Assembly: GCA_963732385.1 (NCBI GenBank)
Contig: CAVSZB010000001.1
Coordinates: forward strand, 64,001-128,000
DNA: 64,000 nucleotides
Direction of reading: 5' to 3'
Source of the DNA: an uncultured bacterium
GTDB taxonomy: Bacteria; Krumholzibacteriota; Krumholzibacteriia; LZORAL124-64-63
The notes beneath the pieces are model-generated. The model did not search any database. It saw only the letters and a list, made by a program, of their open reading frames with translations, and was not told the DNA's origin. This document shows positions 48,634 through 52,195 of this stretch, one piece after another. Position numbers and translations under genes: made by a program. The stretch's first letter is position 1, and every line of letters begins with the position of its first letter.

Positions 48634-50541
48634 GTGAGTTATTGGCGTGCGAGAGGCCGCGCAGGGCGGCGTGATCGAGCCAGCTTCGATCGGGCGAGGG
48701 GAGTTGCAGACATCTTGAGGGCCTGCAATAGTTTACGCGCCAAGTCCACATTCCCTGGCCGCCGGCTGTTCGCGGTGGCCGCCCTTGTGCTCGGACTCGC
48801 CGGCCCCGGGACGGCCAGGGCCCTGCTGCACATCGACTTTGAGCAGGCCATCTTTGCGCCGGCCGGTCTGGCGGTGATGGATTTCTGCGTGCTGCGTGAG
48901 GATGGTTTGTACCACATCTTCTATCACGCCATCCCCGAGGAGCTGCTGGGTCCGCCGGCAGTGAAGACCATCTACCACGCCACGTCGCCGGATCTTGTGC
49001 ACTGGGACCAGTGCCTTCCCGCCATCGAGCGCGGGCCGGAGATCTGGGAGGGGCTGGGTGTCTGGGCGCCCGACGTGGTTTGGGACGCGCCGCGCGGACA
49101 ATGGCGGATGTTCTACACGGCGGCCGATTCCCTGTGGGTCCAGCGCCCCTGCGCCGCGTGGTCCGATGATCTCTATTCGTGGACGAAGGTCCCTGCGAAC
49201 CCCTTGTTCCTCCCGGACACGCTGCAGTACTACTGGTCTCCGACATTGGCGTGGAGTTCGTTCCGCGATCCTTTCCTGTTCTTCGCCGACGGCGTCTGGC
49301 AGATGCTCTCCACGGCCGGCCTGCGCGTGGGAGGATATCCCGGCACCAAACAAGGCATCGTGCACCGCGCGGTGTCCACCGACCTGGAAACATGGGCCGA
49401 CGCGGGGCCGTTCTGGGCCCACGACGGGGCGACTCTGGCCTGGCATGATCTCGAGAGCGCGCAGTATCTGGTGCGGGGGGGCTGGCATCACCTGTTCGTG
49501 ACCGAGCAGGATGTCGCCGGCGTCAGCCACATGGTCGCCGACACGGCAGGTGCCTGGACAATCGCGACCCGCACCCGGATCGACTACGGCTACGCGGCCG
49601 AGATCGACGAGTTCGATCCCGGTGTGGACATCTTTTCACGCTATGTCATAAGTCAGCACCTCGATACAGGGAAACTGTTCTATGTCGCGCGCTTCGACAC
49701 GCTGCGCTGGCTCGACGGCGGAAAGGTCCCCCAGGTCTGGAAGCCCCACCCCCTCAACCGGGATTTTGCGAATCTAACCGGACTCGCAACGTATGGGCAG
49801 CCGACCTGGGGCGACAACCCGGTAGAACGCGGCGAACCTTCGAGCGGCCTGGTAGGAAAAGGCTGGTTCGGCAGCCAGGAGTTCTATCAGGGCCCCGGGT
49901 CGGGCCGCGGCTCGCCGGGCTCTCGCCTGGGAGACGCGGTTACAGGAAGCTGTGACAGCCGTCCTTTCGTCATCGAGGGCGACTTCATCAAACTCCGGGT
50001 CGGCGGCGGGTACTATCCCGAGACCTGCTACGTCGCCCTCGTTGCCACCGACCCAGACACGATACTGGCCCGTGAGACCGGCACGGGCGTCGATTTCATG
50101 ACCGAGCGCATCTGGAACGTGCGCCCCTGGCGCGGGCGGTCTGCCTGCATCCGGATCGTCGACGAGGAGGTCGGCCCGTTCGGGCATATCAACGTGGACG
50201 AGATCGAAGAAATTCTCGACCCGGTGACGGACGTCGGGCAGGGCCAGGGGGGGCCGGCCACGGGCCTGACGCTTCACGCGGCCAGCCCCAATCCATTCAA
50301 CGCCAGCACGGCCATCCGCTTCACCCTGCACGAGCCTGGACCGGTCGAAATGGTCGTCTACAACACCCGCGGGCGCGTCGTGCGGCGCCTGCCTCCCCAG
50401 CAATTCGACGCGGGCGATCACGCGATCTCCTGGCGCGGCCAGGACGAGCGCGGGCGGCCGGTGAGCACCGGGGTCTACATCTATCGCTTGCGGGTCGCCT
50501 CCGGCGCCTGGACTGTTGGGCGTCTCACGCTCGTGAAATGA
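48634..50541 (+). CDS. Secreted GH32/43-like beta-propeller glycosidase with C-terminal FlgD-Ig tail (start uncertain)
   Basis: MDF...YHIFY, SPDLVHW, VWAPDV, FRDP, LES; tail PNPFN.ST.IRF...YNTRGR.VR...WRGQD..G.PVSTGVY.YRL...LTLVK. Confidence 0.8.
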   Translation: MSYWRARGRAGRRDRASFDRARGVADILRACNSLRAKSTFPGRRLFAVAALVLGLAGPGTARALLHIDFEQAIFAPAGLAVMDFCVLREDGLYHIFYHAIPEELLGPPAVKTIYHATSPDLVHWDQCLPAIERGPEIWEGLGVWAPDVVWDAPRGQWRMFYTAADSLWVQRPCAAWSDDLYSWTKVPANPLFLPDTLQYYWSPTLAWSSFRDPFLFFADGVWQMLSTAGLRVGGYPGTKQGIVHRAVSTDLETWADAGPFWAHDGATLAWHDLESAQYLVRGGWHHLFVTEQDVAGVSHMVADTAGAWTIATRTRIDYGYAAEIDEFDPGVDIFSRYVISQHLDTGKLFYVARFDTLRWLDGGKVPQVWKPHPLNRDFANLTGLATYGQPTWGDNPVERGEPSSGLVGKGWFGSQEFYQGPGSGRGSPGSRLGDAVTGSCDSRPFVIEGDFIKLRVGGGYYPETCYVALVATDPDTILARETGTGVDFMTERIWNVRPWRGRSACIRIVDEEVGPFGHINVDEIEEILDPVTDVGQGQGGPATGLTLHAASPNPFNASTAIRFTLHEPGPVEMVVYNTRGRVVRRLPPQQFDAGDHAISWRGQDERGRPVSTGVYIYRLRVASGAWTVGRLTLVK

Positions 50542-50582
50542 TATGGAACGGCTAGTCAAACGTTGATTAGTGCGCTCCTCGG

Positions 50583-50606
50583 GGGCCCCGGCGACAGCCG
50601 GGGCCC
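50583..50606 (-). terminator. Hairpin at the 3' end of the IS non-coding region
   Basis: GGGCCCCGGC-gaca-GCCGGGGCCC perfect 10-bp stem. Confidence 0.5.
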
Positions 50607-50625
50607 TTCTTACGCCTGGTTGTTG

Positions 50626-50786
50626 GGAGCAGGGACTGCAACGACGGTTGATCAGACTGATATCCGCGGGTTGGTTACCGCACACAATTCTGTCCGTCTC
50701 GGGGTGACCTCCGTCTAACACCGCGGGTCCAGCTCATGGCCTGCCGCATACTTCAAACGAGGATTCCCCTGACCGGTCCCTGCTCC
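50626..50786 (-). ncRNA. Putative bridge/seek RNA of the IS110/IS1111 element
   Basis: Closed by an 11-bp stem GGAGCAGGGAC/GTCCCTGCTCC; two repeated TGCGG...CCCGCGG units flanked by TGAAGTA (target-like) and ATATCAG (circle-junction match). Confidence 0.7.
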
Positions 50787-50796
50787 ACTCAGCGTC

Positions 50797-51912
50797 CTAG
50801 TGTTGCTTCGTGGCTGCGACCCACATCGCGGCCCACACGAATCCACTCAGTTCACGGGCCACCGCGACGGCGACCTTGTTGCGATGCTTCGTCTTCTCCA
50901 GGTGATGGAATCGCCTGCCGAGTCGATGCTGGGCCTTCACGGCGATCGCGACCATTTCAGGATCCTGACCCATCCGGCGGCGATCGAGGATCAAGGTCGA
51001 GCCTACCCTGTACTGGTAGTGCCAAGCGGCTTCGACTAGGATCCGTCTTAGGAATGTGTTGCCCGCCTTGGTGATCGAACCACGATGTTGTTGCTCGCCG
51101 CTGGAGTGCTCCTTTGACACCAACCCCGTGTACCCCATCAGCCGGTCCGGGTGACTGAAGCGACGGATGTCTCCGATCTCGGTGACCAACGTCATCGCCG
51201 TCAGGGTCTTGATGCCGCGGAAGCACTGCAGCGCCTCGACGGTCGCCCGCCAGGGCTCGCGACAGGACCACTGCTCGATCTCGGCGTCGAGCGACCGCTG
51301 CTGAGACTCGAGGTACTCCAGGTGGTCGAGGTCGTAGGCCAGGACCGTCTGCAGCGGGCCCGTCATCTCGCGGCGCAACGTGGCCAGCCAGGCGCGATGC
51401 TGCTTCGTCCAATTGCTTTTGGTCCCGGTGAAACGATGTCCGTGGGTAGCCAGCACCCGGACGATCCGATGCTTGCTGCGCACGATCTGACGCTGCAGCG
51501 ACAGTCGGCATCGCACGAGCTGGCGTACCGCCTCTTGCTCCTCATCTGGTATCGTCACCGCCCGCAGATGGCCGCTGCGATACATGCGCGCCAAGCGCAC
51601 GGCATCCAGGCGATCGGTCTTGCGGTGATCGCCCGGGCAGCGGGGGATCAGACTCGGGGCGATCACCTCGCACTGGAACCCATCGTGGTCCAGGGCCCGC
51701 TGCAGGACGTAGCCTGCACCCGAGGCCTCGTAGCATGCCCGCGGGGAGCCCTGCTTGGTCAAGCGGCGGAAGAGCCGGCGAACCGCGTTGAGGTCCCCTG
51801 GCAACCGGACAATCTCCGGGATGTCCTTGTCTCCAAAGAGGATCGCCGCGGTGATGGACTCCTGGTGAACATCCATGCCCACCCAAACGGTCGCTGTGCT
51901 ATCGTGTGTCAT
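50797..51912 (-). CDS. IS110-family DEDD recombinase/transposase
   Basis: VGMDVH, CYEASG, KTDRLDA, GIKTLTA, SSG...GSITKAGN..LR..LVEAAW, AVAREL. Confidence 0.95.
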   Translation of the reverse strand: MTHDSTATVWVGMDVHQESITAAILFGDKDIPEIVRLPGDLNAVRRLFRRLTKQGSPRACYEASGAGYVLQRALDHDGFQCEVIAPSLIPRCPGDHRKTDRLDAVRLARMYRSGHLRAVTIPDEEQEAVRQLVRCRLSLQRQIVRSKHRIVRVLATHGHRFTGTKSNWTKQHRAWLATLRREMTGPLQTVLAYDLDHLEYLESQQRSLDAEIEQWSCREPWRATVEALQCFRGIKTLTAMTLVTEIGDIRRFSHPDRLMGYTGLVSKEHSSGEQQHRGSITKAGNTFLRRILVEAAWHYQYRVGSTLILDRRRMGQDPEMVAIAVKAQHRLGRRFHHLEKTKHRNKVAVAVARELSGFVWAAMWVAATKQH

Positions 51913-52195
51913 GGCTGGGTCCTTTCGTGAGCGGGAGTTTCGGCTCCCTAGTGTCCCTGGTCCGTGCGGACTAACACACGATACCCGAGGGGCCCAGCCG
52001 TTCCATTATGTCTAGCCCTGGGGGATCGTCGCCACAGCCCCATCAGGGGTCTCGGATTGACGATTCCCGCCGCAGGTCGCACATCCCGTCCTTGGCTCCA
52101 CGCCGGCCATCCGCTACGTTTGTCTCCGCCCCCGGCGCTGCCGCTTCCCTTCGCGCCGCGCCGCGCCTGTACCGTCACCATCCAGGAGTATGCGC

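Follow-up and report, generated by a model that had tools for sequence, protein, structure and literature searches.

A 64,000-nucleotide (nt) stretch of contig CAVSZB010000001.1 (positions 64,001 to 128,000 of the forward strand; assembly GCA_963732385.1), from an uncultured bacterium of the Krumholzibacteriota and hereafter called the window, carries an insertion sequence (IS) of the IS1111 type (50540..52013, minus strand; 1474 bp) in the stop codon of a gene for a protein with a FlgD_ig carboxy-terminal domain (CTD). Our analysis makes it very probable that this is a guided element, which enters the L-V-K-stop ends of CTD genes and rebuilds the stop codon, leaving the encoded protein unchanged. 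Looking beyond this one genome, we also consider it likely that a whole clade of such elements has co-evolved with a family of type-IX-style CTD genes, which would offer a renewable, multi-copy and harmless site, with guides that are reprogrammed among K and R tails and among TAR and TGA stops, with element ends that bring their own stop bases and, often, with a terminator.

A genome search recovers 50540-52013 three times in this genome, with 100% identity across all 1474 bp. The three copies sit in three different host genes on two contigs, retain intact 371-aa frames and share one orientation, with a gene-side flank GTGAA[A/G]T and a far flank that begins AG or AA; the far-side flanks (AGCCC, AGCGC and AATCC) have only the first base past the junction in common. 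An earlier reading of the window, made from its letters alone (the sequence-only reading), had predicted that excising 50540-52013 would restore a TAG-ended gene. Exactly this orthologous empty allele, GTGAAATAGCCCC, is present in a relative of the same genus (G015; longer context ...ctcacgctcgtgaaaTAGccccgga...), with the boundaries foreseen, and the empty locus there runs on at 94% identity into the window from 52014 onward. Paralogous empty sites are found as well: two paralogues of the host of copy 3, C3(-)310056 and C7(+)175704, read CTGGTGAAG TAA TCCGGTTGCTTC, which is the two flanks of the filled copy-3 site, joined, and a third, C4(+)90457, reads TAA CCCGG, with one base differing after the stop. 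These orthologous and paralogous empty sites establish that the original stop was TAG, that the element was placed after its T and that target duplication is absent; the displaced AG of that stop now lies at 52014..52015 (plus strand). A single T is common to both junctions, so that placement is ambiguous between 50540-52013 and 50539-52012. The former yields a perfect 11-bp subterminal repeat, ATGGAACGGCT at the right end (50543..50553) and AGCCGTTCCAT at the left end (51996..52006; both given on the plus strand), followed outward by extensions of 3 bp (50540-50542) and 7 bp (52007-52013). IS1111 elements as a rule have subterminal repeats of 11-13 bp, beyond which one end extends by 7 (or 6) bp and the other by 3 bp (PMC11187229; this paper, PMC11208160 and PMC11208158 are cited throughout for those parts of them that were covered).

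The interrupted gene (48634..50541, plus strand) encodes a 635-aa, glycoside hydrolase-like protein with a GH32 N-terminal domain and a C-terminal FlgD_ig tail (Pfam), ending in L-V-K. Its open reading frame closes with CTC GTG AAA TGA, in which the T at 50539 comes from the host and the GA at 50540-50541 from the element. The other two copies likewise lie in K-stop codons of CTD genes, and the genes upstream of the three copies encode three different proteins, each L-V-K-ended with a FlgD_ig/Por_Secre_tail CTD. The earlier proposal that the IS end supplies GA, giving AAA TGA and an unchanged protein, thus holds at the stop position of all three L-V-K hosts. We counted 87 FlgD_ig matches in this genome, 82 of them above the cut-off, together with an SprA_N match of 38.8 bits, also above its cut-off, in a frame of 2254 aa; because of these matches, the FlgD_ig-tailed proteins are probably a large family of type-IX-style secretion substrates. 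Close to the right end of the element lies a GC-rich hairpin (50583..50606, plus strand) with a 10-bp stem and the tail TTCTTACG on the host-gene strand, terminator-like for the interrupted gene. Perfect GC-rich hairpins of at least 7 bp are present in 17 of 30 distinct element tails, and in all 17 the 8-nt hairpin tail is T-richer on the host-gene strand, with at least five T in eight on that strand in 12 of the 17 as against none of the 17 on the element strand. This orientation suggests that the hairpin would terminate the host transcript.

The recombinase gene (50797..51912, minus strand) encodes a 371-aa protein with Pfam matches to DEDD_Tnp_IS110 (9.6e-20) and Transposase_20 (1.1e-19), and the scores for PF01548 (71.4 bits) and PF02371 (71.0 bits) both exceed their cut-offs. 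The non-coding region downstream of this gene is 257 nt long (50540-50796), compared with 101 nt upstream (51913-52013), and in the IS1111 layout the longer non-coding region is also the downstream one (PMC11187229, PMC11208160). Further traits of the group are present, namely the lack of a target-site duplication, a specific site and a fixed orientation, all three copies and 26 related insertions (described below) being antisense to the host gene. For the IS1111 C-terminal motif GL-P----S(t)G the window protein has GLVSKEHSSG, with S replacing P; G263, L264, S271 and G272 are invariant in an alignment of 13 sequences, the consensus of which is GLVPSERSSG. The closest annotated plasmid matches are entries named 'IS110 family transposase' at about 43% identity, one of them assigned to an ISSfr2 family. 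By its domains, non-coding layout, ends and insertion pattern the element belongs to the IS1111 group, presumably with the mechanism of that family, and it is probably active or recently active. Abutting the two ends would place a -35-like hexamer TTGACT (50554..50559, minus strand) at a spacing of 17 nt from CATAAT (the reverse complement of 52005-52010), so that the two resemble a promoter; the hexamer would be half of the promoter expected over the circle junction, junction promoters being a feature known for IS110/IS1111 elements (PMC11208160, PMC11187229). A simple promoter and terminator scan called no promoter within the integrated element, and its sole terminator-like call, at 51989-52004, is the left inverted repeat region. 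The same genome also contains a second IS110-family recombinase gene (G000 C6:54036-55073), the product of which is 42% identical to that of the window.

The 3' non-coding region is more stable than its shuffles (fold z-score -4.3) and contains the predicted structured core of a bridge/seek RNA (50626..50786, minus strand), in which an outer stem surrounds a target-binding and a donor-binding internal loop. RNAalifold, applied to 25 distinct homologous non-coding regions, returned six helices with 28 pairs, 11 of them compensatory. Standard pairs form in 96.3% of alignment cells, as against 36-54% with slid partners; 11 pairs are changed on both sides, compared with 4-6 in slid versions, and none of 500 shuffles equals the observed covariation score. 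As modelled, the fold follows the bridge-RNA plan of an outer stem and two internal loops, each capped by a hairpin. By analogy with characterised members of the family, such an RNA would be produced and bound by the recombinase (PMC11187229, PMC11208160, PMC11208158).

The word TGAAGTA, which the sequence-only reading had singled out as lying in a guide-like position, falls in an internal loop of this covariation-supported fold. It forms the predicted target guide g1 (5'-UGAAGUA-3'; 50749..50755, minus strand) on the 5' strand of the first loop and reads as the gene-sense strand does over the last codons and the first two bases (TA) of the stop. The match is identical at copies 2 and 3 (TGAAGTA) and includes one G-T wobble at the window copy (TGAAATA). 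Since g1 is identical to the gene-sense strand, it is the antisense strand with which it would pair. A second target guide, g2 (5'-UUAGAC-3'; 50713..50718, minus strand), is predicted on the 3' strand of the same loop. Its UUA is the antisense of the stop, exact to the TAA of copy 3 and matching the TAG of copies 1 and 2 by a G-U wobble, and its GAC corresponds to the three bases after the first base of the element (52013, the shared junction base). In this last respect g2 may resemble the handshake guides of IS621, which pair with non-cognate DNA following strand exchange (PMC11208158). Both guides cover the TA of the stop and so overlap there; the top-strand match lies 5' of the bottom-strand match, the same order as in IS1111 seekRNAs (PMC11187229), and jointly the two guides specify about 8-9 nt, that is, [L/V/M/I]-K-stop. 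A longer recognition sequence was considered and rejected: CTSGTGAAR is common to the three copies but has no counterpart in the RNA immediately 5' of the guide.

In the second loop, the 3' strand carries a predicted donor guide (5'-GAUAUCAG-3'; 50657..50664, minus strand), which matches the right end ...ATATC together with the A and G expected next to it once the ends join in a circle. This guide tracks the type of right end among the related elements, each ATATC-ended one having AUAUCAG and each ATACT-ended one AUACUAG. For the 5' strand of the donor loop, complementarity to the left end, judged by eye, is clear as 6-mers in L051 and L052, and the window element pairs with one wobble. Separately, we note that many contigs from sediment metagenomes, with dissimilar flanks, cover only 50642-50683, the donor-loop core CGG..CCCGCGGATATCAGTCTGAT..CCGTCG, which suggests that this core motif is common to many related elements in those communities.

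A recombinase match with E <= 1e-40 is found in 24 of 91 genomes of the same taxonomic family, and a scan of species representatives with a recombinase alignment gave 601 pattern-matched stretches, 590 of them confirmed as relatives, from which the best 80 were taken further. A quick tree of 31 rows (midpoint root; support by Shimodaira-Hasegawa-like approximate likelihood ratio test, SH-aLRT, only, with a value of 100) unites the relatives at 56-95% identity in a single clade. The clade occurs in metagenome-assembled genomes (MAGs) labelled Krumholzibacteriota, Eisenbacteria, Fibrobacteraceae, Bacteroidota, Ignavibacteriota, Acidobacteria, Armatimonadota, Polyangiales and Gemmatimonadota, labels that may be unreliable where contigs are short. 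Of the 29 insertions for which the right flank is 90 nt or longer, 26 abut an open frame that closes precisely at the junction and has a CTD-like tail (...SGVYFY...K.LLK). A FlgD_ig and/or Por_Secre_tail match with E <= 0.01 is found in 24 of the 26 tails, the two unmatched ones being fragments of 63 and 30 aa cut by contig ends. Right ends are of two types: ...CCATATC reads T/GATATGG on the gene strand (the slash marking the junction) and gives TGA, and ...CCATACT reads T/AGTATGG and gives TAG. As both types rebuild a stop, all 26 CTD insertions retain one at the original position.

The guides vary with the targets across these relatives, in the last codon (AAG, AAA, CGC or AGA) as well as in the stop (TAR versus TGA). 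Across the 27 insertions compared, guide and target have the same base at 182 of 211 positions and form a wobble at six more; with guides permuted among targets, the mean is 156.9 (standard deviation 3.4) and none of 10,000 permutations reaches 182, so that the match proposed for the window element holds as covariation between g1 and target. L034, for example, whose recombinase is 95% identical to that of the window, has the guide UCAAGUA and the target CAAG/T, and the guides UCAAAUA of L017 and UCAAGUA of L025 face the targets ATCAAA and ATCAAG, respectively. The guide UGCGCUG of L049 corresponds to GTG CGC TGA (V-R-stop), AGG in the guide of L053 to AGA in its target, and in L046 a guide ending in GUG is found together with a second guide UCAGAG and a left flank CCTC, for a TGA stop. 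The second guide likewise fits the left flank, the junction base and the left end in relatives, at nine of nine positions in L036. Near-identical recombinases, separated by branch lengths of only 0-0.017, can carry different guides (CUGAAAUA in L039 and L043, CUUAAGUA in L047 and CUAAAGUG in L046), with correspondingly different target words. As L039, L043 and L047 come from one genome, two guide variants coexist there, which points to fast natural reprogramming. The sequence-only reading had proposed that the element is programmed against the [LV]K-stop ends of FlgD-Ig-tail genes; copies, empty allele, fold and covariation agree with this, and the claim can be refined in that a second guide reads the stop on the opposite strand and the clade adds R-stop and TGA-stop variants.

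A similar arrangement is seen in an outgroup at 43-49% identity with unrelated targets, mostly from Solirubrobacterales with a few Myxococcota and others. Here the target word occurs at the same loop position with 7/7 matches in five and at least 6/7 matches in 14 of 16 loci, compared with means of 0.25 and 3.8 in shuffled controls. Among the outgroup loci, L113, L085 and L097 (in MAGs labelled Myxococcota and Caulobacteraceae) match their flanks with the guides CUGCGCU or CCGUUCU; the flank of L113 reads CTG CGC T/AG on the opposite strand, and R-stop-like targeting may therefore extend beyond the main clade.

Taken together, these data suggest the following course of events. The g1 word UGAAGUA would pair with the antisense of the last one and a half codons and the first two stop bases, (x)TG-AAG-TA, and the UUA of g2 with the sense strand of the stop, TAA exactly and TAG through a G-U wobble. 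For the guide of the window element, matching target words would be of the type GTGAAGTAA, or its TAG form, and GTGAAATAG. Words of this kind recur at the ends of the many FlgD_ig/Por_Secre_tail genes that these bacteria have, since a conserved hydrophobic-hydrophobic-K/R closes the tail. A circular form of the element, with the predicted junction ...CCATATC-A-GACATAATGG..., would recombine at such a site and land directly behind the stop codon's T, invariably in antisense orientation relative to the host gene. The right end (...ATATC or ...ATACT) would then provide GA or AG, and thus TGA or TAG at the same position, and in many members the hairpin near the right end would terminate the host transcript. 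The circular intermediate and the exact cleavage positions are assumed to be those of related systems (PMC11187229, PMC11208160, PMC11208158), and by the same analogy we infer that the insertion is neutral.

How far the guide alone accounts for the restriction to CTD genes can be judged from the distribution of the guided word, TGAARTAR, which has 164 unoccupied occurrences in the genome: 18 close other frames of at least 150 codons, 138 lie elsewhere, and only eight are at the ends of CTD genes, as recognised by a crude motif. The chance of finding three of three copies in CTD stops is then (11/167)^3, or about 3e-4. It follows that the guide alone fails to explain the exclusivity for CTD genes, and that loss of harmful insertions or an extra determinant must contribute; as the guided word is only about 8-9 nt long, the restriction probably owes something to selection as well. 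Taken to its limit, this argument would have the RNA specify a generic word of 8-9 nt and purifying selection produce the CTD restriction wholly, such that the element would not be 'programmed against' the family at all. This is possible though rather unlikely in our estimation. The few unoccupied words at CTD ends would fit it, as would an insertion at a guide-matched word outside a CTD gene (L050, discussed below). However, the guide variants of the clade are exactly the synonymous or alternative endings of CTD tails (AAG, AAA, CGC and AGA, with TAR or TGA), both variants of the right end restore a stop, and the orientation of the hairpin suits the host gene, three features that are hard to explain without long residence of the lineage in such sites. 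Guide targeting and selection are in any case compatible and not mutually exclusive.

On another view the RNA match is incidental, and the choice of site falls to the recombinase itself or to some DNA structure 3' of genes, for instance a terminator or a palindrome like those of repetitive extragenic palindromic (REP) sequences. This has precedents, in that many IS1111/IS110 members target REP-like palindromes (PMC11208160) and a preprint abstract describes a structural layer of recognition in ISPpu10. For the element studied here we consider such a choice very improbable, as the far-side flanks of the three copies agree only at the first base past the junction, guide and target covary at several positions, and the near-identical recombinases of L039/L043, L046 and L047 go with differing guides and correspondingly differing words. 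It is also improbable, if slightly less so, that the elements are fossils whose copies were kept identical by gene conversion or assembly collapse rather than by recent transposition. In keeping with fossils, neither the circle junction nor a polymorphic empty site was seen in the assembled Logan contigs of sequencing runs, a result that is uninformative on activity or expression (the single RNA run contained 0.05 of the sampled words). Against them stand the three copies that are 100% identical over 1474 bp in three hosts and on two contigs with intact 371-aa frames, the empty site in a genome of the same genus, and metagenome contigs that break off at the element edges, as expected of a repeat.

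Several observations nevertheless weigh against recent, guided and protein-neutral insertion into CTD genes, or against its simplest form, and the distribution of TGAARTAR and the missing junction and empty site in the run contigs are among them. Three of the 29 insertions are exceptions: L050 lies at a guide-matching ATG ATA AAA TAG (M-I-K-TAG) outside a CTD gene, L056 has lost its target loop and sits elsewhere, and the right flank of L059 does not fit. The hairpin of the window element has only four T in its 8-nt tail and was not flagged by the simple terminator scan, and a hairpin with a perfect stem of 7 bp or longer is absent from 13 of the 30 distinct element tails. Guide position 3 (U or A) faces a target G, a plain mismatch, in seven of the 27 pairs, an A-C mismatch occurs at guide position 6 in two further pairs, position 1 of the guide 8-mer is mostly unpaired, and the related elements from which these pairs are drawn are non-independent samples. 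Pairing of the donor-loop 5' strand with the left end is inconsistent by eye (in the L036, L042 and L064 group). Finally, no bridge or seek RNA family in Rfam matched the non-coding region; BjrC68, the only hit, was rejected as a candidate, its 18.2 bits on the GC hairpin being below the gathering score of 39.

Some further observations concern sites and copies related to the element. A search for solo ends or miniature derivatives (nhmmer, end profiles) matched only the three full copies. Three other L-V-K CTD genes of the same genome, with frames ending at C3(+) 169064, C7(-) 283781 and C8(+) 445416, have a TGA stop followed directly by bases like the right end of the element and then by a GC hairpin, and carry no recombinase gene; at the C3 gene, TGATATGGAACG matches the right end at 12 of 12 positions. 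These sites may be relics or miniature derivatives, a weak signal beyond the reach of the nhmmer end profiles. On C3 there are also three tandem paralogues (FlgD_ig at 187307-187495, 192634-192822 and 196604-196792), of which one is empty (TAA), one bears the element and the third reads AAG TGA TCCGG, with a stop that the guides no longer fit. Chance mutation may explain this, or the site may be a resistant allele or a footprint. In one metagenome contig (run X2), position 50791 is joined to 51986 with 10 other letters between them and only 32 nt on one side, which weakly suggests a derivative without the recombinase gene that keeps the RNA region and the left end. In a second genome of the same genus (G016, L115), the YchJ-like gene downstream of the insertion is kept at 88% identity and the upstream neighbour is a different gene, so that the GH32/CTD host gene is not at that locus there.

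With regard to novelty, full-text searches of open-access papers and bioRxiv, leaving aside the supplementary target logos of PMC11187229 and PMC11208160, yielded no account of an IS110/IS1111 element aimed at stop codons or at secretion-tail genes. The recombination mechanism is already known for the family, and the class of target and the stop-rebuilding design appear to be undescribed in the literature covered. Bridge- and seek-RNA recombinases are under development as programmable genome-writing tools, and their natural targets have so far been mostly intergenic repeats. In the clade described here, evolution appears to have pointed the guides at a protein-constrained word and to have shaped the donor end for silence at the protein level, and, if this is true, RNA-guided insertion into a stop codon without a scar would already have an example in nature. 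The clade also provides a comparative set of naturally reprogrammed guides, tolerated mismatches and two types of donor end, and suggests the design idea of placing cargo exactly at a stop codon. From the point of view of the hosts, a mobile element seems to track a family of secretion-substrate genes over several candidate phyla, and it may have reshaped the 3' parts of these genes time and again.

The use of gene ends by mobile elements has well-known parallels. Tn7 inserts downstream of glmS, and some integrases enter tRNA or protein genes at their 3' ends, which they restore; both rely on protein-DNA recognition (by TnsD and by tyrosine integrases, respectively) and on a single-copy site. 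The element studied here resembles these systems in using a conserved gene end as a safe landing site where gene function would be kept, and differs from them in the RNA guides and in the multi-copy family of sites. Its closest likeness is to the IS1111 seekRNA elements ISEc11, ISKpn4, ISPa11 and ISPst6, with which it shares a DEDD recombinase (371 aa here, compared with 330-350 aa in the family), a longer downstream non-coding region, subterminal repeats of 11-13 bp with 7- and 3-bp extensions, the absence of a target duplication, and a short RNA segment complementary to the top strand that lies 5' of one complementary to the bottom strand, with matches that overlap in the target (PMC11187229). 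Unlike in those elements, as far as they are described in the parts covered, the target is the last codons and stop of a protein family and not a REP sequence, attC or transposon end, and the end of the element rebuilds the stop. As in the bridge RNAs of IS621 and other IS110 elements, there are predicted target and donor internal loops that would each read both DNA strands, target-loop bases that match the donor after strand exchange, as in IS621, and a promoter expected over the circle junction; in contrast to IS621, the RNA lies in the right and not in the left end, the order of the strand-specific guides is reversed, and the crossover base that is demonstrably shared is a single one (A/T) in the ATATC-type elements, as against the CT dinucleotide core (PMC11208160, PMC11208158). 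ISEc21 likewise aims its guide at a protein-constrained word that recurs throughout a multi-copy family, in its case the DDE codons of IS3-family transposase genes; it inserts into these genes and interrupts them, thereby inactivating its target, whereas the insertion here lies in the stop codon and the product is unchanged (PMC11187229). What sets the present elements apart is thus the combination of a protein-fixed word that ends a multi-copy family, insertion within the stop itself, a donor end that restores the stop and, often, a putative terminator oriented to the host gene.

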